Shown: in pieces, positions 6,147 to 23,521 of the stretch
Numbering within the stretch: the first letter of the stretch is position 1
Layout of the letters: each line of letters opens with the position of its first letter
Assembly (NCBI GenBank): GCA_964539465.1
Contig: CAZIIL010000001.1
Location: forward strand, 1-26,105
From: an uncultured Candidatus Saccharibacteria bacterium
GTDB lineage: Bacteria; Patescibacteriota; Minisyncoccia; Minisyncoccales; CAYTKG01
Direction: 5' to 3'
Length of the DNA: 26,105 bases
The notes under the pieces: model-generated
Database searches by the model: none
The model's input: only the letters and a program-made list of their open reading frames with translations
Told to the model about the DNA's origin: nothing
Translations under genes and position numbers: made by a program

Positions 6147-6524
6147 ATGGGAAACGCCACTAAAAAAATTCTTATTATCGAGGATGATAAATTTCTGAGA
6201 CAGTTGATTGTCCGCAAATTAACAGAGGAGGGCTATGATATCTCTGAGGCAGTGGATGGAGAGGAGGGAGTAAAGAAAGTGAAAGAGATAATGCCCGACC
6301 TGATTTTGTTAGACCTGATACTGCCCGGTATTGATGGTTTTGAGGTTTTATCTCGGATAAAGAGCGATGAGCCCACCAAGAAGATTCCGGTGATTATCCT
6401 TTCTAATCTTGGCCAGAAAGAAGATGTTGAAAGGGGTTTGAATCTGGGAGCGGTTGATTACTTGATAAAAGCGCATTTTACTCCAGGCGAGATTGTTGAG
6501 AAAATAAGAAGCGTTTTGGAGTAA
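6147..6524 (+). CDS. Single-domain response regulator (receiver only)
   Basis: ILIIEDDK, PDLILLDLILP, IILSNLG, LIKAHFTP. Confidence 0.93.
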   Translation: MGNATKKILIIEDDKFLRQLIVRKLTEEGYDISEAVDGEEGVKKVKEIMPDLILLDLILPGIDGFEVLSRIKSDEPTKKIPVIILSNLGQKEDVERGLNLGAVDYLIKAHFTPGEIVEKIRSVLE

Positions 6525-6526
6525 AA

Positions 6527-6680
6527 ATAGGACGCATATGCCGCAAGGCAAAGTGAAACTTTGCCTTGTGTTGCCAGCCCGCTCTTGGTAGCGGACTTTT
6601 CTTTTCTGTGGAAAACCTGTGTATAAAGTGTTCGATGCCGGGCATCGAACACTTTATAAAAACTGGCCACTGCCAGTTTT
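6527..6680 (+). repeat. Mosaic element with paired DnaA-box-like motifs and an 18-bp palindrome
   Basis: ATAGGAC, CGCAAGGCAAAGTGAAACTTTGCCTTGTG, GCCAGCCCGC, TGTGGAAAA-CC-TGTGTATAA, TATAAAGTGTTCGATGCC-G-GGCATCGAACACTTTATA, AAAACTGGC-CACT-GCCAGTTTT. Confidence 0.88.
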
Positions 6681-10113: not shown

Positions 10114-10222
10114 TAGGACGAATAGGACCAATACGCTGCAAGGCAAAGTGAAACTTTGCCTTGCGGGGAGGCGGGCTGGCAAAGCCAGCCCGCCCAGCGA
10201 AGCTTCGCTCCGCAGAAAAAGC
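10112..10222 (+). repeat. Mosaic element between murE and archease
   Basis: ATAGGACGA-ATAGGACCA-ATACGC, GCAAGGCAAAGTGAAACTTTGCCTTGC, GCGGGCTGGC-AAA-GCCAGCCCGC, GCGAAGCTTCGCTCCGC. Confidence 0.92.
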
Positions 10223-10227
10223 GAAAT

Positions 10228-10632
10228 ATGAAGAATTTTGAGATTTTAGAACATAGCGCAGACCTGAAGATTAGGGCTTTTGGCAGCGATAAAGAGCAGC
10301 TTTTTTGGAATATGATGCGGGGAATGCAGGCGAGCTTGCGGTCTAACCCAAGCGAACAGAAAACAGAAACAAAAATAATGGTTCAATCCGAAGACCTGCT
10401 ATCTTTATTAGTTGATTTTTTATCAGAAATTAATTATCTAAACGAGATTAATCAAGAGGTTTATTACAGAATAAAGTTTGATAAATTCTCCGACACCGAG
10501 TTAGAAGCTGAACTTTCTGGCTACAAGGTCAAAAGGTTTGGGTTGCAAATCAAGGGAGTTACCTTTCATGATTTAGATGTGAGCCAGAAACAAGATGGGC
10601 AATGGGAGGCAACGGTTTTGTTTGATATATAA
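10228..10632 (+). CDS. Archease
   Basis: FEILEHSADL.IRAFG, LLVDFLSE, IKGVTFH, C-terminal LFDI; immediately upstream of rtcB. Start moved to ATG 10228. Confidence 0.92.
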   Translation: MKNFEILEHSADLKIRAFGSDKEQLFWNMMRGMQASLRSNPSEQKTETKIMVQSEDLLSLLVDFLSEINYLNEINQEVYYRIKFDKFSDTELEAELSGYKVKRFGLQIKGVTFHDLDVSQKQDGQWEATVLFDI

Positions 10633-10636
10633 AATT

Positions 10637-13588
10637 ATGGGGAAAAAGATATTTAAAAAAATTAATGATTATCTGTGGGAGATTCCGGCAAGCCACCGTA
10701 GGTTTATGAGGGTTCCAGCGCGGATTTATGCTTCTGAGAAAATATTAGAAGATGTGGAACCCGATGCCTTGGAGCAATTAATCAATGTTGCGTCTTTGCC
10801 TGGAATTGTCAAATATTCTTTTGCTATGCCAGACATTCATACCGGCTATGGTTTTGTTATTGGCGGCGTGGCGGCTACAAAACTTCCAGAAGGCGTGATT
10901 TCTCCCGGCGGTATCGGTTTTGACCAGAATTGCACCGTTCCCAACACAAGAGTTTTATCAAGCATGGGTTTTTACTTACCCATTAAGGACCTAGAAAAAA
11001 ACAAAACGAAAGTAAGATTTGTTGATATTGATAAGAATAATTTAGGAACTTCAGAGGTTATCCGTTTCATAAAGCAGTATAATAATCCAAGTATCTATAA
11101 GATAACTACAGAATCAGGGGAAGAATTAGAAGTTACAAAGGATCATCCCATTCAAACGGAGAGTGGCATGAAGGAGGTTAGAAATGTTAAAAATGGGGAG
11201 AAAGTATTAATTTATCCCTTCAAAGGAGTGGAATTCCAATATCCTGTTTCAGATGTTATTTTGAATGAGGAAAAATTTAGAAAAATTCTGAAAAAATTCA
11301 ATAAAACTGAGAAAGGAAATGCTATTCTGCAAATTTTAAATTATATTAAATTCCGAGGGTTTTTGCCCTTGAGATATAATTCTCCTTCCTTACCTCATAT
11401 TTTAAAAATAATGGGGTTTATTTTTGGCGATGGGGCTGTGACAATTAATAAAGACGGAAAGGGAACCGTACAGTTTTATGGGAAAAAGGAGGACTTGGAA
11501 CAAATCCGTGAAGATGTAAAAAGAATTGGCCTTGTGCCCTCGAGAATATATTCCCGAGAAAGAAACCATTCTATTACTAATTTTTATGGCAAGCAGGAAT
11601 TTACGACAACCGAGCAACACTTTAAGGTAACTACCACTGCCTTCGCACTTTACTTGGTGGCTCTCGGGACACCCTATGGCCTTAAAGCGCATCAGGAATA
11701 TAGAGTTCCAGAATGGATTTTCAATTGTCCATTATGGCAAAAGAGATTGTTTTTAGCATCTTTTTTCGGAGCTGAACTTTCAAAGCCTTCAACCTCTAAT
11801 AATAAGTATAATCTTCATGCACTACAGTTTAGTGTAAGCAAGAAAGTAGAGTTGAAAGAAAATGCAAAAATGTTTTTAGAAGATATTAAAAGACTTTTAA
11901 GCGGTTTTGAGATCGGAAGTTCGCCTATTCAAGAAGTCCCTGGTTATCAATATAATGGTAAACTCGGGAAGACAACTGCTTTTAGGCTACATATTAATGG
12001 AAATAGTGAAAATCTTATAAGATTTTTTGAGTCAATTAGCTATGAATATAATCAAGAAAGACAAAGAGAGGCTTGTTTAGCGGCCAGTTACTTAAAAAGG
12101 AAATTGAGAATAGTAGAAATTAGGACTAAGACAAGGGACAGGGCATTTGAGCTTTATAAACAGGGAGAAAAAATAAAAAATATCATTAAAAGCCTTTCCA
12201 GCAGATATGCTCCTCCTCAATTTATTAAACACTCGTTTTTCAAGAGTAAAAGAGGAAAACCAAGAATCTCTTTTGATTTTCTATCCTTTGAAGAATACAA
12301 GAAGAAATATGCTTTTGGGGAGAGTGGTTTGGTTTGGGAGAAAATTGAAAAGATAGAAGAGATTCCATACTCAGGTTCTGTTTTTGACATTACTATCAAT
12401 GATATAAATCATAACTTTATTGCTAATAACTTTGTTGTTTCAAATTGCGGGATTCGTGTTCTGAAAACAGAATACAAGAAAGAGGAAATTATGCCTTTTA
12501 TTGATAGATTGGCAACAGAAATGCAGAGACGGGTTCCGTCTGGATTAGGCAGAGGACATAAAACAAAGTTAAGCGTAGCGCAGATAGACAAAGTATTGAA
12601 AAATGGTGTTTCCTATCTTGTGAGCCAAGGATATGGCGACGAGCAAGATATAGAAAATTGCGAGGCAAGAGGCAAGATGGAGCAGGCAGATGTAGCTACG
12701 GTTTCAGAAAGAGCTAAAAATAGAGGCAGGAACCAATTGGGTACATTGGGCAGCGGCAACCATTTTCTTGAAGTCCAAAAAGTTGAGGAAATTTTTGACG
12801 AACAAACAGCCAAAGTTTTTGGGCTTTTTGAGAATCAAGTAGTAGTAATGATTCATACGGGTTCCAGAGGGTTAGGGCATCAAAATTGTACTGATTATTT
12901 GAGGATTGTAATGAAAGCAATGCCGAAGTATGGGATAAGCCTGCCGGATAAGGAATTGGCGTGTGTTCCATTTAATTCTTCTGAGGGGCAGAGATTTTTT
13001 GGGGCTATGTCGGCTGCTGCTAACTTTGCGTGGGGAAATCGACATATGATAAGCCATTATGTCAGGAGAGCGTGGCAGGATGTTTTGGGCAAGGAAGCAA
13101 AGCTTGACTTGCTTTATGATGTTGCCCATAACATTGCTAAGGTTGAAGAGCATATAATTGATGGCAAGAAAATGAAATTATGTGTTCATCGCAAAGGCGC
13201 GACAAGGGCTTTCCCGCCAGGGCATTTGGAGATTCCAGCGCAATATAGGACTGTTGGCCAGCCGGTTTTAATTCCTGGTTCTATGGGAACTGCTTCTTAT
13301 ATTTTAGCCGGAACAGAACAAGGCAGCCCATCTTTTTTCTCAACCTGCCACGGCGCTGGCAGAAGGATGTCGCGAACCAGAGCAAGAAAAACTATTTCAG
13401 GGGAACAAGTTATTGAGGAGTTGAAAAGAAAAGGAATCTTGGTAAGATGTTATTCAGTAAGGGGTATTGCCGAAGAAGCGCCTCTTTCTTATAAAGATGT
13501 TGATAATGTGGTTGAGGTTGTGCATCAGGCAGGCCTGGCAAAAAAAGTAGCGAGGTTGGTGCCCTTGGCTGTTATTAAAGGAGAATAA
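10637..13588 (+). CDS. rtcB: RNA-splicing/repair ligase RtcB, intein-containing (478-aa extein)
   Basis: MPDIHTGYG, GGIGFDQN|CGIR, GSGNHFLE, HTGSRG, HNIAK, HRKGATRA, STCHGAGR. Confidence 0.96.
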   Translation: MGKKIFKKINDYLWEIPASHRRFMRVPARIYASEKILEDVEPDALEQLINVASLPGIVKYSFAMPDIHTGYGFVIGGVAATKLPEGVISPGGIGFDQNCTVPNTRVLSSMGFYLPIKDLEKNKTKVRFVDIDKNNLGTSEVIRFIKQYNNPSIYKITTESGEELEVTKDHPIQTESGMKEVRNVKNGEKVLIYPFKGVEFQYPVSDVILNEEKFRKILKKFNKTEKGNAILQILNYIKFRGFLPLRYNSPSLPHILKIMGFIFGDGAVTINKDGKGTVQFYGKKEDLEQIREDVKRIGLVPSRIYSRERNHSITNFYGKQEFTTTEQHFKVTTTAFALYLVALGTPYGLKAHQEYRVPEWIFNCPLWQKRLFLASFFGAELSKPSTSNNKYNLHALQFSVSKKVELKENAKMFLEDIKRLLSGFEIGSSPIQEVPGYQYNGKLGKTTAFRLHINGNSENLIRFFESISYEYNQERQREACLAASYLKRKLRIVEIRTKTRDRAFELYKQGEKIKNIIKSLSSRYAPPQFIKHSFFKSKRGKPRISFDFLSFEEYKKKYAFGESGLVWEKIEKIEEIPYSGSVFDITINDINHNFIANNFVVSNCGIRVLKTEYKKEEIMPFIDRLATEMQRRVPSGLGRGHKTKLSVAQIDKVLKNGVSYLVSQGYGDEQDIENCEARGKMEQADVATVSERAKNRGRNQLGTLGSGNHFLEVQKVEEIFDEQTAKVFGLFENQVVVMIHTGSRGLGHQNCTDYLRIVMKAMPKYGISLPDKELACVPFNSSEGQRFFGAMSAAANFAWGNRHMISHYVRRAWQDVLGKEAKLDLLYDVAHNIAKVEEHIIDGKKMKLCVHRKGATRAFPPGHLEIPAQYRTVGQPVLIPGSMGTASYILAGTEQGSPSFFSTCHGAGRRMSRTRARKTISGEQVIEELKRKGILVRCYSVRGIAEEAPLSYKDVDNVVEVVHQAGLAKKVARLVPLAVIKGE
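10931..12445 (+). mobile_element. Intein with LAGLIDADG homing endonuclease (505 aa)
   Basis: N-terminal Cys (CTVPNTRV), block B (TKDHPI), block C IMGFIFGDG, block E FLASFFGAEL, C-terminus FDITI..NHNFIANNFVVSN followed by Cys+1. Confidence 0.93.
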
Positions 13589-15083: not shown

Positions 15084-16700
15084 TTAGAGGTTTTTTACCA
15101 TATAGGTGTTTTTGAGCCGATAGCCCAATTTGCGATAATAATCTCTGACTCCGATACCAGCAATCACGGATATTTTTTTCAAGCCGAACTCATCCTTTGC
15201 AATACTTTCTGCGCTTTTGATTAATTGCTTTCCCAAGCCCTTATGCTGTGGTGAAATCATGGAGTCCTGTCCTCTGTGGTTTGTTTTTAAGGAAAGTTGT
15301 GGCCCAAAGGTTTGGATTTCACGAATAATAGCAGTACGAGAAGTGTTCTCGCATTGAATTCGCAATCTGAGTAAACTGAAAAGCTTTGTTCTCTCTTTGT
15401 TTTCAAAACTAAGAAAAATCTCTTTGCCGCCAGATGCCTCATAATCTTCGCGAAAAAGATTAATTTTTTCTTGGGGGCAATATCTTGCTCTTACCTCGCG
15501 GCAGCGGATGCAATGACATCTCTTGTTCTGCTTTTTTAATTCCAGCGCTACAACCTCTCTTAGATTTGAAGCCCTACAGCCGGCAATGATACTATATGAA
15601 GGAATATCACGGAATATTCTTGCAACCCTAACCCAATAAGGCAGATGTGTTTTGATTGTAATCAATAGTTTAACCAGTTGTTTGCAAGAGTATGGTTTAT
15701 ATCCACCCCCTTTCCACACATTCAAGAGTTTTGTTTTCGGGCAGACAACACAGGGGTAAATTTTGAGCCAATCAGGCCTGAATCTTGCGTCGTTGAAAAG
15801 AATTTGAAAGCATTCTAAATCCCTGCTTAGATTAGAGCCGGGCAGATTGGGCATTATTTGGTAAAGAACCTTAAATCCAGCATTCTTTAGTATTTGGGTG
15901 GCTTGGCTAATCTTTTGGACAGCCATTCCTGTGCGGCATTTTTTCAGAATATCGTCAAAGACGGTTTGAACTCCTAACTCTACCAGTGTTACGCCCAATT
16001 TTCTCAACCGTAAGACCTCTTTTCTATCAATAAAATCAGGTCTAGTTTCAATAGATAAGCCGACAATTCTATTCCTGGCTGTTTCATTTTTCTTTTGAAC
16101 TTTTCCCAGCAGAACAAGTCCCTTTTTATTAGGGACACGTTTCGTTTTAACATGCCCTATTTTAAACTCATTAGCCGCTTGGAAGCAGCGCTTAATAAAC
16201 CATGTCTGATATTGCTTTGGATAAAAGGACCATGTTCCGCCAACAATTCTTAATTCGATTTTATCAATAGGATGACCCTGATAATTCAATGACTCTAATC
16301 TCTTCTGAACCTGAAGATAGGGATCGAAGCCGAGGGCCTTTGCCCTGTCAGCAGCTGGTTCGCCGCTGACATAACTCTTAGGAAATCCTTTTTCGGTTGG
16401 ACAGTAGATACATTGGCCAGGGCAGGGGTATGGCTTGGTTAAGACAGAGATATTGACAATGCCAGACAAGGAGCGGATGGGCCGGGTTATCAAGAGATTC
16501 TCAATAATTTTTGACTTCCTGATTGTTTTATTTTTTACTAATCTATGATAGATTTTTAGCAAGTCGACATTAGACGGAAAAGATGTCCCAAATTCTTTTG
16601 CAAATCTGCGCTTTGTCTTTTCTAAATTCTCCCGACTACCGATGTTGTGGTCAGCGAGATACTTAACGAGTAGCTTCTTTTGCTTTTTATGCTCTATCAT
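15084..16700 (-). CDS. elp3: Elp3-family tRNA uridine(34) acetyltransferase (radical SAM + GNAT)
   Basis: RSLSGI..ISVLTKPYPCPGQCIYCP, PKSYVSGEPA, GGTW, ETRPD, VELGVQ, MPNLPG, LKIYP, CIRCRE, QHKGLG, VIAGIGVRDYYRKLGY. Confidence 0.93.
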   Translation of the reverse strand: MIEHKKQKKLLVKYLADHNIGSRENLEKTKRRFAKEFGTSFPSNVDLLKIYHRLVKNKTIRKSKIIENLLITRPIRSLSGIVNISVLTKPYPCPGQCIYCPTEKGFPKSYVSGEPAADRAKALGFDPYLQVQKRLESLNYQGHPIDKIELRIVGGTWSFYPKQYQTWFIKRCFQAANEFKIGHVKTKRVPNKKGLVLLGKVQKKNETARNRIVGLSIETRPDFIDRKEVLRLRKLGVTLVELGVQTVFDDILKKCRTGMAVQKISQATQILKNAGFKVLYQIMPNLPGSNLSRDLECFQILFNDARFRPDWLKIYPCVVCPKTKLLNVWKGGGYKPYSCKQLVKLLITIKTHLPYWVRVARIFRDIPSYSIIAGCRASNLREVVALELKKQNKRCHCIRCREVRARYCPQEKINLFREDYEASGGKEIFLSFENKERTKLFSLLRLRIQCENTSRTAIIREIQTFGPQLSLKTNHRGQDSMISPQHKGLGKQLIKSAESIAKDEFGLKKISVIAGIGVRDYYRKLGYRLKNTYMVKNL

Positions 16701-16704
16701 TTAA

Positions 16705-17427
16705 ATGGATAAGGATTATGCTCAATATCTGGTTTCTAAGACCTGCCTTGATTATAACTTGATTGCTTCCGAGTTTTCAAACAAAAGAAGTTTTCTTTGG
16801 AAAGAACTGAATTATTTTAGACAATTCTGTTCGGATGGCGACCGTATTTTAGATATTGGTTGTGGGAATGGAAGATTATTAGAGCTTTTTGACGGATTAA
16901 AGGTAGATTATATTGGGCTTGATAACTCAGAAAAATTAATAGCCATAGCAAGAAAAATCAGAGACAGTAGGGGGGAAAACAGCTCTGTGGAGTTCGTTGT
17001 TGGGGACGGCTTGAATCTGCTGTTTGATGCTTGCCATTTTGACAAGGTTTTCTCAATAGCCGCCTTTCATCACATACCTTCAAGAAATTTTAGGTTAAGA
17101 TTTTTAAAGGAAGCAAAAAGGGTGCTCAAACCTCAAGGTTTACTTGTGTTAACGGTCTGGAATCTTTGGCAAATAGCATTTTTGAAATATCACTTTAAAC
17201 ATCTGCTTCTAAAGATTTTTTGTAAATCAAGATTGGACTTTAAAGATATTCTTTATCCCTGGAAAGACCAAACAGGAAGCCCTTTTATCCAAAGATATCT
17301 GCATTGTTTTACAAAAAGAGAGTTGGAAAGATTGGTTAAAGAGGCTGGTTTTCAAATTAAGGAAGTAGGGTTCTTGGGGGAGAACAAGAGAAATATTTAT
17401 TTAGTTGCAGCAGCCCCCACAGCTTAA
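16705..17427 (+). CDS. Class I SAM-dependent methyltransferase, Trm9/ALKBH8-like
   Basis: YNLIA.EFS, ILDIGCGNGR, GLDNSEKL, SIAAFHHIPS...RL..LKE.KRVLKP.G.L.LTVW, RYLHCF...EL. Confidence 0.75.
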   Translation: MDKDYAQYLVSKTCLDYNLIASEFSNKRSFLWKELNYFRQFCSDGDRILDIGCGNGRLLELFDGLKVDYIGLDNSEKLIAIARKIRDSRGENSSVEFVVGDGLNLLFDACHFDKVFSIAAFHHIPSRNFRLRFLKEAKRVLKPQGLLVLTVWNLWQIAFLKYHFKHLLLKIFCKSRLDFKDILYPWKDQTGSPFIQRYLHCFTKRELERLVKEAGFQIKEVGFLGENKRNIYLVAAAPTA

Positions 17428-17447: not shown

Positions 17448-17519
17448 GTCCCTGTAGTCCAATGGATAGAACATCGGCCTCCGGAGCCGAAGATGCGCGT
17501 TCGAATCGCGCCAGGGACA
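17448..17519 (+). tRNA. tRNA-Arg (anticodon CCG), CCA not encoded
   Basis: Acceptor GTCCCTG/CAGGGAC, anticodon arm TCGGC-CTCCGGA-GCCGA, T-arm GCGCG-TTCGAAT-CGCGC. Confidence 0.96.
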
Positions 17520-17520
17520 C

Positions 17521-17668
17521 ATAGGACACATAGGAAAAAATAGGACGAATAAGAAAAATAGGACATATAGGACCGATAGGACCAATACGCCCGCCGAAGA
17601 AGCGGGGAAGAGCCAGCCCGCGCAGCGGAACTTTACTCCGCTTTGCTCTGGGGAGCGTCGGGCAACGC
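17521..17668 (+). repeat. Mosaic element with the longest 9-mer array (7 units), abutting the tRNA 3' end
   Basis: ATAGGACAC, ATAGGAAAA(A), ATAGGACGA, ATAAGAAAA, ATAGGACAT, ATAGGACCG, ATAGGACCA, then ATACGC, CCGCCGAAGAAGCGG, GCCAGCCCGC, GCGGAACTTTACTCCGC. Confidence 0.92.
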
Positions 17669-17670
17669 AT

Positions 17671-17698
17671 TTGACAAATCCTTTTTTAGCAGTAAAAT
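17671..17698 (+). promoter_or_regulatory. Sigma70 promoter
   Basis: TTGACA-16 nt-TAAAAT; predicted start near G17705. Confidence 0.65.
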
Positions 17699-17704
17699 AG
17701 TTTT

Positions 17705-17837
17705 GAGGGAGTGAGGGGGCAGTGTCCTCCAAAGGCAATAATGCTGACAAGTAAATATTGCCGGGTGCGCGTATAATTGGGATATTGCTTATTCCAAGGC
17801 CCAAGGCCCGGCGCTGTTTACCAAGCTAAACTCCCTT
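17705..17837 (+). ncRNA. Candidate structured small non-coding RNA, family unassigned
   Basis: GC-rich ORF-less stretch between a consensus promoter and a strong terminator; 5' and 3' ends pair; internal hairpins present. Confidence 0.5.
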
Positions 17838-17873
17838 CCCCAGCACATAAGACCTATGTGCTGGGTTGTTTTT
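17838..17873 (+). terminator. Intrinsic terminator
   Basis: CCCAGCACATA-AGACC-TATGTGCTGGG followed by TTGTTTTT. Confidence 0.8.
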
Positions 17874-17923
17874 GACAATGTTATTGGGTTATAATGAAAA
17901 AAGATTAACAAAATTTCTAAATA

Positions 17924-18532
17924 ATGAAAAGCAATAAATTTAAATATAAGATAGCTGTGTCTGGGGCAGAGGCGACAGGCCATTGCAGTAAAGATGCCGC
18001 TGAAAGAGCAAGGGAGATTGGGAGGCAGATTGTCAAACATAAAGGAGTGCTTCTTACTGGCGCTTGCTGGGGCATGCCATACGAAGCCGCGACTGGGACC
18101 GAAGAGGCAGGGGGAATTTCTATAGGCGTGTCGCCAGCCATTTCGGAGAAAGACCATTATGAACAGTTTAAAATGCCCACCGATAACTTTGACCTGATAT
18201 TCTATACTGGCTATGGTTTTTCAGCCAGAAATGTTTGGCTGATGCGGATGGCTGACGCTGTTATCTTTATCTGCGGCCGAATGGGCACATTAAACGAATT
18301 TACTATCTGCTTTGAGGATGATAGGTTAATAGGCATTTTAGAAGGAAGCGGCGGCACAGCTGATATTATAAGGAACATAGTCAGCAATACCCATAAGGGT
18401 CCTGGGAAGATTATTTATGAGAAAGACCCCAAAAAATTAGTAGAAAAGATTTGTCATGCCATTGACAAAGAAAAGAAAGAAATGGAGGTCTATTTCGAGG
18501 TTCAAAAATTCATCAAGGGTCGCAAGTTTTAA
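17924..18532 (+). CDS. LOG/SLOG-family Rossmann-fold protein (TIGR00725-like)
   Basis: IAVSGA, AREIGRQI, LLTGACWGMP, SIGVSP, RNVWLMRMADAVIFICGRMGTLNEF. Confidence 0.8.
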   Translation: MKSNKFKYKIAVSGAEATGHCSKDAAERAREIGRQIVKHKGVLLTGACWGMPYEAATGTEEAGGISIGVSPAISEKDHYEQFKMPTDNFDLIFYTGYGFSARNVWLMRMADAVIFICGRMGTLNEFTICFEDDRLIGILEGSGGTADIIRNIVSNTHKGPGKIIYEKDPKKLVEKICHAIDKEKKEMEVYFEVQKFIKGRKF

Positions 18533-18563: not shown

Positions 18564-18839
18564 ATGTCTCAAGAAAACAATAAACTTGAAGAGTGGAAAT
18601 TAATCGGCAAGGTAACCCATTACTTTGATAAAGCAGGAGTAGCTGTGCTTGAACTTTCTTCTATTCTAAAACAAGGAGAGACCATTAGGATTGTGGGAGG
18701 GATAGATACTGATTTCGAGCAAGTAGTTAAGTCCATGGAAATAGAACATGAAAAGATAGAAACAGCGAAGAAAGGAGATATTATCGGCTTAAAAGCAAAA
18801 GAGAAGGTGAGAGAGGGCTACAAGGTCTATAAGAAGTAG
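18564..18839 (+). CDS. Small beta-barrel protein, translation elongation factor domain II-like
   Basis: LIGKVTHYFDKAGVAVLEL..LKQGETI.I.G..TDFEQ.V.SMEIEH..IE.AKKGD.IGLK; start at ATG 18564. Confidence 0.75.
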   Translation: MSQENNKLEEWKLIGKVTHYFDKAGVAVLELSSILKQGETIRIVGGIDTDFEQVVKSMEIEHEKIETAKKGDIIGLKAKEKVREGYKVYKK

Positions 18840-18970: not shown

Positions 18971-19303
18971 ATGACAAAAAAGAGATGGCCAGAGGAGATT
19001 TATCAAAGGGTTAGCATCCCGGATCTGATTTTGGTTTCTCTTTTGTCTTTAGAAGCTTCAGGCAAGAAGATTAATTTTGAAGAATTGCTAAAACAGTGCT
19101 TTGACCTATTCCCTCGCAGATTTAGTTTTTCAAAAATGAAATGGCCGGATGCCAGAAAGATTGACCGACCCCTGAGAATGCTTCGAGTTCAGAACCTGAT
19201 TAGGAATAGGTCCGAGACCGTTCTTGTTCTTACCAATAAGGGCAAAAAAAAGGCATTAAGCGCAATGAACCTTCTTCGGCAAAAGAAATTAAAGTTGAGA
19301 TGA
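18971..19303 (+). CDS. Hypothetical basic protein, possible winged helix
   Basis: DLILVSL...INFEELLKQCFDLFP..FSF..MKWPDARKIDRPLR.LR...LI......LTNKGKKKA has a wHTH-like ending. Confidence 0.55.
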   Translation: MTKKRWPEEIYQRVSIPDLILVSLLSLEASGKKINFEELLKQCFDLFPRRFSFSKMKWPDARKIDRPLRMLRVQNLIRNRSETVLVLTNKGKKKALSAMNLLRQKKLKLR

Positions 19304-21987: not shown

Positions 21988-22023
21988 GTAATTGTTCAAT
22001 CTTCCAGATTAAACAATTGGAGA

Positions 22024-22075
22024 TATTGCTTTTTCGGCAGATTTGTGTTATAAGGGCACAATGTTGCTCTTTACT
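22024..22075 (+). promoter_or_regulatory. Duplicated promoter/leader, copy 1
   Basis: TTGCTT-17 nt-TATAAG; 47/52 identical to 22595-22646; followed by AGGAGGTGA. Confidence 0.75.
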
Positions 22076-22090
22076 TTAGGAGGTGAAGAC

Positions 22091-22510
22091 ATGAAGAGGT
22101 TTTTCTTGCTCGAAGTTTCTTTACTGATTCTTGCTTGTGGACTCTTCGCCGCTGGCGCGGTGGCTGAGCCCGCTCTTCCTGCTCCTGTTTCCGCTCCTGT
22201 CCTCGCTCTTCCCCCATCTCCTGTTCTTCCTCTCCCCGTTCCTTTTACCTCTCCTCTTTCTACTCCTACTTCTACCCAAGAGCTCCGCATCAAGTATCTT
22301 CAATACGATGAACAGGGCATCGCCATCCTGGAAGTGACAGTCGATGGTGGAGAGATAAAGACAGTAGGGCTTCTTGAGGGTCGTCCCGTCCGTATCCAAA
22401 TCTGGAACGCGGACGGAGAGGTCATCAAGGACATCTACTTTCTCCTATTAGAGGATGGGAACATCTACTATAAGGAGAAAAAGGAGGACGAATGGACAAG
22501 TTTGGCTTAG
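22091..22510 (+). CDS. Secreted hypothetical protein with Pro-rich linker
   Basis: SD AGGAGGTGA then ATG 22091; signal-peptide-like MKRFFLLEVSLLILACGLFAAGAVA; Pro/Ser/Thr linker; acidic beta-rich C-domain. Confidence 0.75.
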   Translation: MKRFFLLEVSLLILACGLFAAGAVAEPALPAPVSAPVLALPPSPVLPLPVPFTSPLSTPTSTQELRIKYLQYDEQGIAILEVTVDGGEIKTVGLLEGRPVRIQIWNADGEVIKDIYFLLLEDGNIYYKEKKEDEWTSLA

Positions 22511-22519
22511 GTCTGGCTT

Positions 22520-22544
22520 AGGGGACGCTTCGGCGTCCCTTTTG
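22520..22544 (+). terminator. Intrinsic terminator
   Basis: AGGGGACGC-TTCG-GCGTCCCTT followed by T-run. Confidence 0.8.
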
Positions 22545-22594
22545 TATTTGGGTGTTGTGTAACGAGGTCAGACCTTGTTACAGTGCCTTGAGGG

Positions 22595-22646
22595 TATTGC
22601 TTTTTCGGCAGATTTGTGGTATAAGAATACAATATTGCTCTTTACT
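22595..22646 (+). promoter_or_regulatory. Duplicated promoter/leader, copy 2
   Basis: TTGCTT-17 nt-TATAAG with extended TG; 47/52 identical to copy 1. Confidence 0.75.
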
Positions 22647-22670
22647 ATAGTTCACCTTAGGAGGTGAGAA

Positions 22671-23276
22671 GTGAAAAAAAGAATGTTCTTCTTGGTAGGA
22701 CTCTTGCTGGTTGGTGGCGGGCTTTTAGCGCTTGGATTCGCCGCCGAGCCATCCCATGCTCTCGCTTCTATGTCCATTGGGGACACAGAGATAGAAGAGC
22801 TCTATTACCAGTTCCGGGCGGACTGGCAAGACCAGCCAGACGGGGAAGAAGATGTCTGGCAGGTCTCTGCAGAAATGCGGGGGGATTGCGAGGACTTTGT
22901 TCTTACTTTCTCCACCCAACTGCCTTCTTATTATGAATCGTTTCTCGTTCGCATGGAAGTAGAAACGATTCATCAATTCCTTGGTATTCAGTTGGGCAGG
23001 AAAAGTAGCGGCCACATTGCTGCTATCCTGTTTAACACCCAAACAGGAGAGATTTGGGTGTTAGACAATGATTGGATAGTGGGTCTCCGTGGCCCCTTCC
23101 CTCCAGGCCTGATTGGCTCCTCTTCCCCTGCTGTCATGGCTCTGAGACAGGGACAAGAAGAAGGACAAACAGGGTTTCTTTCTCGGAAGAGAGAAGTAAC
23201 AAGGATACAAATTTCCCTTTTTACACTGGAAAGGGAAGTTTTCCGGGAAGACAACAGTGTGCTTTGGCAAAAATGA
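22671..23276 (+). CDS. Exported transglutaminase-like cysteine protease (BTLCP/LapG-like)
   Basis: Signal peptide, then GDCEDF, GHIAAIL and WVLDN: Cys-His-Asp order and motifs as in BTLCP. Confidence 0.65.
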   Translation: MKKRMFFLVGLLLVGGGLLALGFAAEPSHALASMSIGDTEIEELYYQFRADWQDQPDGEEDVWQVSAEMRGDCEDFVLTFSTQLPSYYESFLVRMEVETIHQFLGIQLGRKSSGHIAAILFNTQTGEIWVLDNDWIVGLRGPFPPGLIGSSSPAVMALRQGQEEGQTGFLSRKREVTRIQISLFTLEREVFREDNSVLWQK

Positions 23277-23305
23277 CCCCACAGATTTATCGTGGGGTCT
23301 TTGCT
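23275..23305 (+). terminator. Terminator-like hairpin
   Basis: GACCCCAC-AGATTTATC-GTGGGGTC followed by TTTGCTTTT. Confidence 0.55.
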
Positions 23306-23325
23306 TTTGAGAGATGGGCTGGTTT

Positions 23326-23365
23326 CTCCTCCGCCAGGCGGAGGAGGGCAGGGCAGGGCAGGGCT
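23326..23365. repeat. 10-bp palindrome plus GGGCA x3
   Basis: CTCCTCCGCC-A-GGCGGAGGAG followed by three GGGCA units. Confidence 0.7.
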
Positions 23366-23468
23366 TTGCTCTAATAGGCCCATGGAAAACTCTGTCAAGA
23401 ACAGTTCTGGACAGAGTTTATGTAGATAGGAACGAGATCAGATTTCGTTGCAGCAATGTTTTATAGGG

Positions 23469-23497
23469 TTGAATTCTGTATCTCAAAGGGCTACAAT
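23469..23497 (+). promoter_or_regulatory. Sigma70 promoter candidate for leuS
   Basis: TTGAAT-17 nt-TACAAT. Confidence 0.55.
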
Positions 23498-23521
23498 AAA
23501 ACCACGGTATAACTGCTATCT

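Follow-up and report, generated by a model that had tools for sequence, protein, structure and literature searches.

A stand-alone pseudoknotted RNA gene of Parcubacteria with a variable palindrome suggestive of homodimerization

Contig CAZIIL010000001.1 of assembly GCA_964539465.1, an uncultured member of the Patescibacteriota, carries a small RNA gene on its plus strand, which is the subject of this study. The whole 26,105-nucleotide (nt) stretch was analyzed and is referred to as the window. A sequence-only reading had proposed that positions 17671-17873 encode a structured noncoding RNA, driven by a TTGACA-16-TAAAAT promoter and closed by a strong terminator. Both signals are present, and the promoter recurs in homologues. 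The gene contains the following features, in which P, H and Pal denote structural elements discussed below.

17671-17698, plus strand: promoter, with -35 TTGACA (17671-76), a 16-nt spacer and -10 TAAAAT (17693-98); 11 of 12 consensus positions match
17705-17837, plus strand: structured RNA core, 133 nt, the exact span of the match to covariance model R2
17705-17712, plus strand: 5' strand of P1, GAGGGAGU, partner of 17830-17837
17715-17730, plus strand: hairpin P2, GGGGG (17715-19), loop and CCUCC (17726-30)
17733-17739, plus strand: P3a, AGGCAAU, on the P2/H4 junction strand; pairs with 17784-17790 (pseudoknot P3)
17743-17765, plus strand: 5' strand of H4/H4', GCU, internal loop, GUAAAUA-U-UGCCGGG; pairs with 17807-17826 in the constrained fold
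17765-17774, plus strand: Pal1, 5' side of the large internal loop, GUGCGCGUAU with the core UGCGCGUA, self-complementary when G-U pairs are included
17777-17797, plus strand: hairpin P6, UUGGGA(UA)/(UA)UUCCAA, whose loop carries P3b, AUUGCUU (17784-17790)
17798-17806, plus strand: position of Pal2, 3' side of the large internal loop, weak in the window (GGCC only)
17807-17826, plus strand: 3' strand of H4'/H4, CCCGGCG-C-UGUUUAC ... AGC
17830-17837, plus strand: 3' strand of P1, ACUCCCUU, partner of 17705-17712
17839-17873, plus strand: intrinsic terminator, an 11-bp hairpin (17839-17865) followed by the T-run UUGUUUUU

G17705, the first base of P1, lies 6 nt past the end of the -10 element, and transcription is predicted to start at or beside it; a primary transcript including the terminator hairpin would measure about 165-170 nt. 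The core had been described as GC-rich and free of open reading frames (ORFs). Its G+C content is indeed 51%, compared with about 40% for the window, and an ORF check covering the window and its homologues found no conserved reading frame in it. Indels among the homologues do not come in multiples of three, and changes within helices are compensatory. A small ORF beginning at an AUG in H4a of one homologue (L023) was considered and rejected, as it is not conserved. The plus strand folds with -69.2 kcal/mol (z = -4.1; none of 200 shuffled sequences folded as well), and the minus strand reaches z = -2.3 relative to its shuffles.

We identified 26 distinct homologues in metagenome contigs of several groups of Parcubacteria (Patescibacteria). 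The nearest protein relatives are named Pacebacteria, Azambacteria, Nealsonbacteria and Staskawiczbacteria, all within the Parcubacteria group. Contigs whose SLOG proteins are 66-78% identical to the one encoded downstream of the RNA in the window have the same gene order and a related sequence in the same gap (the window SLOG protein itself was not on record in an exact look-up). The gap sequences (L002, L004, L005, L006, L009 and L011) begin with GAGGGRGU at the 5' side, end with CYCCCUY at the 3' side, and are flanked by the same promoter and by a terminator. Synteny alone led to seven homologues, all of which have TTGACA and a -10 element spaced as in the window; since no promoter motif was used to find them, these promoters count as independent evidence. 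Further members were sought with a DNA pattern that combined the promoter with the first (5') third of the RNA. It produced three matches in genome contigs, two of them on contigs already in the set, adding one GTDB genome, a Staskawiczbacteria metagenome-assembled genome (L015), and matched 33 metagenome contigs, of which about 20 are genuine. About 10 of the 33 (L017, L019, L021, L026/42/45, L028, L035/36, L038 and L048) are chance matches that covariance models reject. The pattern is also too strict, since a real member, L050, escapes it. This locus and its relatives (L050-54, a Nealsonbacteria-like lineage) were reached through a small β-barrel protein encoded nearby, and the RNA was found at the expected site with 73.6 bits.

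Throughout the family the RNA is framed by the same kinds of signals. Among 25 RNAs, the end of the -10 element (4-5 of 6 positions matching, spacer 16-18) lies 6-9 nt from the first G of P1. A hairpin with a U-run is found 25-45 nt past P1 in 24 of 25 homologues; terminator stems reach 15 bp and begin 0-10 nt past P1. When homologues were compared, terminators of different groups turned out to be unrelated in sequence and to have no conserved complementarity to the core. These observations show the window RNA to be a stand-alone gene with its own predicted σ70-type promoter and intrinsic terminator.

Folding with P1 fixed and both strands of P3 held single-stranded produced one architecture in every homologue. 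The predicted fold is a three-way junction of P1, the short hairpin P2 and a long arm H4/H4', with a loop-to-junction pseudoknot, P3. P1 corresponds to the end pairing (17705-12 with 17830-37) that had already been noticed in the window, and it is kept in all homologues. It comprises 7-8 bp, seven of which are paired in 100% of 26 sequences, with the near-invariant strands GAGGGRG and CYCCCUY. The P2 stem, variable in length, is 94.6% paired, and three of its five pairs change on both sides (e.g. AU in 13 sequences, GC in 11). A linker of 2-3 nt leads from P2 to P3a, which spans 5-7 nt (consensus GGACA) and is followed directly by H4 (10-16 bp; 87% paired, 13 of 14 pairs changing on both sides) and H4' (4-8 bp; 91%, 4 of 4). 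Beyond H4' the strands part into a large internal loop, with about 11-13 nt on each side, and the arm is capped by P6 (4-7 bp; 92%, 4 of 4), the previously recognized hairpin at 17777-97, likewise kept in all homologues. The P6 loop of about 9 nt (consensus CAUUGUCCG, with a conserved CAUUGYCCG motif) holds the complement of P3a. Core length varies from 125 to 145 nt.

P3 is 98% paired in the model-based alignment of the 26 sequences. Because that alignment was fitted to the nested helices, we checked P3 on a plain MAFFT alignment (A2). RNAalifold applied to A2 predicts P1, P2 and P3, with P3 paired in 25 of 25 sequences. MAFFT alignments misplace the register of H4, P6 and the 3' end, and model-based alignments were therefore used for the other counts. 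Separate lineages carry compensatory changes in P3. A-U replaces G-C at positions 1 and 2 (in three and two sequences, respectively) and G-C replaces A-U at position 3 (three sequences); L050 adds A-U to C-G (GGCC with GGCC). For the fold as a whole, 92.8% of cells are paired in the 26 sequences as against 76.9% with shuffled partners, a level reached by none of 500 shuffles. The covariation score is 0.533, compared with 0.237 for shuffled partners and 0.09-0.16 when partners are slid by 1-3 columns; of the 39 pairs, 28 have substitutions in both partners. The covariation also identifies the strand. There are 118 G-U cells and 24 A-C cells, and pairing would fall from 92.8% to 83.3% if the opposite strand were read instead; the roughly fivefold excess of G-U over A-C together with the higher pairing therefore points to the plus strand as the one that folds.

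Half of the four helices drawn earlier from the window alone, P1 and 17777-97, agree with the family structure, whereas the other two had to be corrected. A helix between 17718-26 and 17810-18 can be drawn in the window, but in the family its bases belong to P2 (17715-19/17726-30) and H4' (17759-65/17807-13). The hairpin GGCAATA/TATTGCC (17734-62) is a perfect pairing (17734-40 with 17756-62) in this one sequence. Across the family, AGGCAAU (17733-39) pairs with AUUGCUU (17784-90) to form P3, and UAUUGCC belongs to H4. An unconstrained fold of the window correctly gives H4 and P6, but P3 is beyond its reach, and it masks the competition between GGCAAUA/UAUUGCC and H4. Several further pairings were considered and dropped. 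A putative helix P5 (AGGU/RCCU) is broken by a G-to-A change in L023 that H4' tolerates. Neither a T-box-like reading of a CGG codon after P3a nor base pairing between Pal2 and the anticodon loop of tRNA-Arg (UUCCGGAA in L002/L005) is conserved across groups.

We used two covariance models: R1, seeded from group C alone, and R2, seeded from 22 homologues with the window left out. R2 matched the window at exactly 17705-17837 on the plus strand (37.5 bits, E ~3e-6) and also recovered L025 (48 bits) and L011 (35 bits), both of which, like the window, are outside its seed. R1, from group C only, did not recover the window. R2 found no match in three non-syntenic SLOG loci (L010, L012 and L013). 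The RNA is also absent from L055-58, a sister lineage of that of L050-54 with the gene order Elp3-DUF7411-SLOG-barrel.

We next compared the RNA with known families. At the gathering score, only the tRNA-Arg in the window passed any of the 4227 models of Rfam 15, a set that includes signal recognition particle (SRP) RNA, RNase P RNA, transfer-messenger RNA (tmRNA), Y RNA/YrlA, 5S, raiA, ARRPOF and OLE. Relaxing the threshold to E<=10 for 17520-17960 yielded only a chance microRNA match of 13.7 bits, and nothing overlapped the RNA in ten homologous loci at E<=1. A blastn search against phage and plasmid collections showed no similarity, and a literature search found no description of the RNA. 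The initial impression that the RNA is not a tmRNA, RNase P RNA, SRP RNA or known riboswitch is thus borne out, and the strong covariation among homologues supports the accompanying suggestion of a new class. We are highly confident that the window encodes, in a gene of its own, a structured RNA whose family is absent from Rfam. The family appears to be previously undescribed, and its known range is the Parcubacteria (Patescibacteria).

A highly diverged housekeeping RNA (SRP RNA, RNase P RNA, tmRNA, Y RNA or 5S) would be another way to account for a stand-alone gene of this kind. CPR (candidate phyla radiation) genomes are known to harbor unusual variants of universal components, and the neighborhood is rich in tRNA-related genes (RtcB, archease, Elp3, tRNA-Arg, MetRS and LeuRS). 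However, no Rfam model scores on the RNA in the window or in the ten homologous loci, and reading of the sequence together with ARAGORN revealed no SRP domain IV motif, RNase P CR-I/CR-V or tRNA-like end. Moreover, related lineages have no RNA at the syntenic site. We therefore regard this explanation as the least probable of those considered here, with only the slimmest chance of being correct.

The immediate neighbors of the RNA gene in the window are the following.

17448-17520, plus strand: tRNA-Arg(CCG), upstream of the RNA, detected by Rfam and ARAGORN
17924-18532, plus strand: SLOG/LOG-like gene (PF18306, TIGR00725), 87 nt after the core
18565-18839, plus strand: gene for a 91-residue β-barrel protein resembling EF-Tu domain 2 and the U32 C-terminal domain

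The SLOG gene, the β-barrel gene or both lie 3' of the RNA on the same strand in 25 of 26 loci; of the loci whose sequence extends far enough, only one lacks the β-barrel gene downstream. SLOG/LOG proteins act on nucleotides. In one arrangement, SLOG begins at +43 to +150 nt and a protein of 86-100 residues follows at +650 to +830 nt; in the other, confined to one group, the small protein comes directly after the RNA, at +116 to +191 nt. There are three upstream contexts, namely Elp3-methyltransferase-tRNA-Arg, a Dam-like methyltransferase, and dnaA-dnaN; tRNA-Arg(CCG) is found upstream of the RNA in members of all three groups. The surrounding genes of the window mark a genome of Patescibacteria type; among them are a split 5'-3' exonuclease, an intein-bearing RtcB with archease, a bacterial Elp3, MetRS and LeuRS.

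Such consistent placement raises the question of whether the RNA is a cis-acting leader or riboswitch, its fold serving as an aptamer and its terminator as the expression platform for the SLOG and β-barrel genes. The co-orientation in 25 of 26 loci despite three upstream contexts, the terminator present in 24 of 25 homologues and the aptamer-like combination of a three-way junction with a loop-junction pseudoknot all favor this idea. The THF-I riboswitch, for example, is a three-way-junction aptamer in which a hairpin loop docks on a joining strand. As in aptamers of that type, P1 closes the fold, the loop of a distal hairpin pairs with the junction strand and junction bases are conserved. Unlike those riboswitches, however, the window RNA has its own promoter, a fixed terminator and no expression platform overlapping P1; the downstream genes have putative promoters of their own, and there is no detectable sequence relation. 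Across the family, the terminators are long, separate from P1 and unlike between groups, with no conserved alternative pairing with the core. The downstream genes keep a TATAAT or an extended -10 (TGnTAnnnT) box after the terminator, and in the window a TATAAT lies between the RNA terminator and the SLOG gene. In four loci (L023 at ~6500-6530, L006, L011 and L037), the SLOG ATG is only 6-8 nt past a TATAAT box that abuts the RNA terminator, which suggests that these SLOG mRNAs are leaderless and that two transcription units are tightly packed. One locus, L034 (12452-12640), has a U-run right after P1 in place of a hairpin terminator and neither SLOG nor β-barrel gene within ~1 kb downstream, making it the only locus in which the linkage is broken. 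Conversely, close SLOG relatives occur without the RNA. A leader function is therefore quite unlikely, and we infer that the RNA acts in trans.

Several other features of these neighborhoods deserve mention. In the window, 8 copies of a 9-nt unit (consensus GGACAAATA, 76% matches) stand in tandem at 17515-17587, from the 3' end of tRNA-Arg(CCG) onwards. The GC-rich DNA after them (17588-17670) does not fold significantly (z = -0.5). In homologous loci the spacer is much shorter and the 9-nt repeat is absent. In one lineage (L002, 2516-3731), tRNA-Arg and the RNA gene are separated by small ORFs, three in number (145, 123 and 129 residues, no Pfam match), which may be an insertion next to the tRNA. 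Upstream in the window (15084-17427), Elp3 (radical SAM and GNAT domains, 546 bits to TIGR01211) is divergent from an S-adenosylmethionine (SAM) methyltransferase, beside tRNA-Arg. This pair is syntenic in many relatives and may be an Elp3/Trm9-like tRNA U34 modification pair. Further upstream (10156-13588), archease is followed by an RtcB RNA ligase containing a LAGLIDADG homing-endonuclease intein, 997 residues in all. In one group (L040, 6003-7914, and also L044), a divergent dnaA-dnaN pair and SLOG flank a gap of ~540 nt that contains the RNA; a replication origin would be expected in this region. A 110-residue protein with no family match, encoded after the β-barrel gene (18971-19303), is syntenic (108-112 residues) in most related loci. 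Finally, the region 22000-23520 has a G+C content of 0.48 compared with ~0.40, weak ORFs with TTG/GTG starts, a faint transglutaminase-like match and nothing recognized by Rfam; a gene that was poorly called, or a further RNA, could be located there.

The large internal loop of the RNA had attracted attention earlier for an unpaired GCGCGTATAAT containing a -10-like hexamer. This segment does form the 5' side of the loop, but its TATAAT is peculiar to the window; the property conserved at the site is self-complementarity, not the hexamer. This bears on the possibility, also put forward earlier, of a divergent 6S-like RNA, an open-promoter mimic that sequesters RNA polymerase. Like 6S RNA, the window RNA is small, independently transcribed, probably abundant and probably trans-acting, with a large internal loop (about 11-13 nt per side) flanked by helices and, in the window, a TATAAT in that loop. 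Yet where 6S RNA is an extended rod, this RNA has a core of 125-145 nt built on a three-way junction, its arm folded back by a pseudoknot, and the helix beyond the loop is only 4-7 bp. There is no conserved bubble sequence: where the window has TATAAT, other homologues have GCAAUUGC, GUAUAUAC and the like. Neither RF00013 and its relatives nor any other Rfam family matched at E<=10 in the window or E<=1 in the ten loci. A 6S-like function is accordingly very improbable, if marginally less so than a diverged housekeeping RNA.

What distinguishes the loop is a self-complementary stretch of 6-14 nt, Pal1, which occupies one fixed site in almost every homologue and differs in sequence between them. 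Examples are GCAAUUGC, GCGCGUGC, GAAGCUUC, GUAUAUAC, GUGUACAC, UAAGUAUAUACUUA, GCAUAUGC, UGCGCGCGCGCA, GGAUAUCC, AUAGCUAU, UCUGCGCAGA and GACGUC. A Watson-Crick palindrome of at least 6 nt is present in 18 of 21 distinct segments (chance 0.26 per segment, binomial tail 1e-8) and one of at least 8 nt in 12 of 21 (0.07, 2e-9). On the opposite side of the loop, the Pal2 site contains a palindrome of at least 6 nt in 11 of 21 segments (0.17, 3e-4), such as CUCGAG, CCCGGG, UCUAGA, GCUCGAGC, CGAAUUCG, CUUUAAAG, UUCCGGAA or UCUUAAGA. These binomial tails ignore the relatedness of the sequences, although the palindromes themselves differ between them. In most of the RNAs, Pal1 is the longest palindrome of the whole molecule, and the four bases at its center are self-complementary in about 18 of the 19 distinct cases.

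The simplest reading is that Pal1 forms an intermolecular duplex between two copies of the RNA. The alternative is that the same gene and fold remain monomeric, with the palindromes acting as short hairpins, protein-binding sites or alternating pairings. Hairpins explain most cases poorly, because palindromes of 6-8 nt would give just 1-2 bp and a hairpin loop has no need of the self-complementary center that nearly all of them possess. A binding site for a single protein is a poor explanation as well, because the sequences are too varied. On the other hand, some palindromes of 12-14 nt (L024 and L009) could form hairpins of 4-5 bp, and by eye the 3' palindrome of group B (CUCGAG, CCCGGG) can pair with CCGAG/CCGG after P3b. 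On balance, sequence evidence inclines us modestly towards dimerization through the palindrome, and we consider a monomer possible but clearly less probable.

Palindromic pairing is a documented interface of natural RNA homodimers, as in HYER1/5 and P10 of ARRPOF (review, PMC12990946). HYER1 and HYER5 dimerize via a palindrome, and their relatives that have none are monomeric; in ARRPOF, a 12-bp helix is constantly intermolecular, while loop-junction pseudoknots can be swapped between protomers (PMC12990946). ARRPOF, HYER1/5 (group IIC-derived ribozymes) and OLE are likewise stand-alone, elaborately folded RNAs that form a duplex through a self-complementary stretch. The likeness to ARRPOF extends to its pseudoknots, loop-to-junction and loop-to-end, which may be set beside the internal-loop palindrome and loop-junction pseudoknot found here (PMC12990946). 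In contrast to these RNAs, the window RNA is far smaller (~130 nt), belongs to another phylum and context and resembles them neither in sequence nor in covariance models, and its dimerization is predicted from sequence alone.

In the mechanism that we favor, two molecules would pair via their palindrome or palindromes into a symmetric homodimer, and P3 would then form either within each copy or between the two. Covariation is the same for P3 in cis and in trans and cannot distinguish them. The dimer would ease one puzzle posed by the fold, in that a monomer requires the P6 loop to reach back ~17-20 bp along H4/H4' to the junction. That a stand-alone, pseudoknotted RNA gene would be trans-acting and homodimeric through palindromes, all taken together, seems to us evenly balanced between right and wrong.

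Several points weigh against this picture. The distance that the P6 loop would have to span in a monomer is one. The shuffle controls overstate significance, because the sequences are related and most pair counts were made on an alignment fitted to the structure. The DNA pattern that supplied most homologues demands TTGACA and the 5' motif; for these, promoter conservation is partly built in, and the observed distribution is biased. Pal1 of the window is weak, relying on G-U pairs, L011 lacks an even-length palindrome, Pal2 is missing in about half of the RNAs and the palindromes of L024 and L009 are long enough for a small hairpin. As to the gene neighborhood, the order of SLOG and β-barrel genes could be inherited synteny, the RNA has so far a far narrower known distribution than the β-barrel family, and the L012 and L055-58 lineages have both genes with no RNA nearby.

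The last point concerns a possible protein partner. The β-barrel protein is 70-78% identical across many CPR lineages. Sequence searches against PDB gave nothing useful, but its AlphaFold2 model (pLDDT 88) matched, according to Foldseek, the C-terminal domain of U32 peptidase (4he6, TM 0.82) and domain II of EF-Tu, EF-1α and IF2. Domain II of the EF-Tu/IF2 type contacts the 3' end of tRNA, and the likeness therefore makes the β-barrel protein a reasonable candidate partner. More speculatively, the RNA dimer might be the scaffold or the active part of a ribonucleoprotein, with the EF-Tu-domain-2-like protein as the leading candidate. That the RNA forms a particle with this protein is a guess, and a rather unlikely one. 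The boldest version would be a new Parcubacteria-specific RNA class in which a palindrome homodimer with swappable P3 and the barrel protein together make up a hitherto unrecognized ribonucleoprotein, or a ribozyme, serving tRNA- or translation-related metabolism in these reduced genomes; we rate it as unlikely too, slightly more so than the particle.

Patescibacteria (CPR) represent a large share of bacterial diversity and have tiny genomes that are almost unstudied at the RNA level. A conserved, pseudoknotted and separately transcribed RNA without an Rfam counterpart is unlikely to be idle in such a genome. The varying palindrome at a fixed site provides a concrete and cheaply testable prediction of homodimerization. 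Natural RNA–RNA quaternary structure has been recognized only recently and mostly in very large RNAs, so that a 130-nt example, if true, would be an easy model. In addition, the constant neighborhood, with tRNA-Arg upstream and SLOG plus the conserved EF-Tu-domain-2-like mini-protein downstream, offers candidate partners. Even if the RNA is only a lineage-specific regulator, it constitutes a well-supported family for RNA catalogues and would improve the annotation of CPR genomes.

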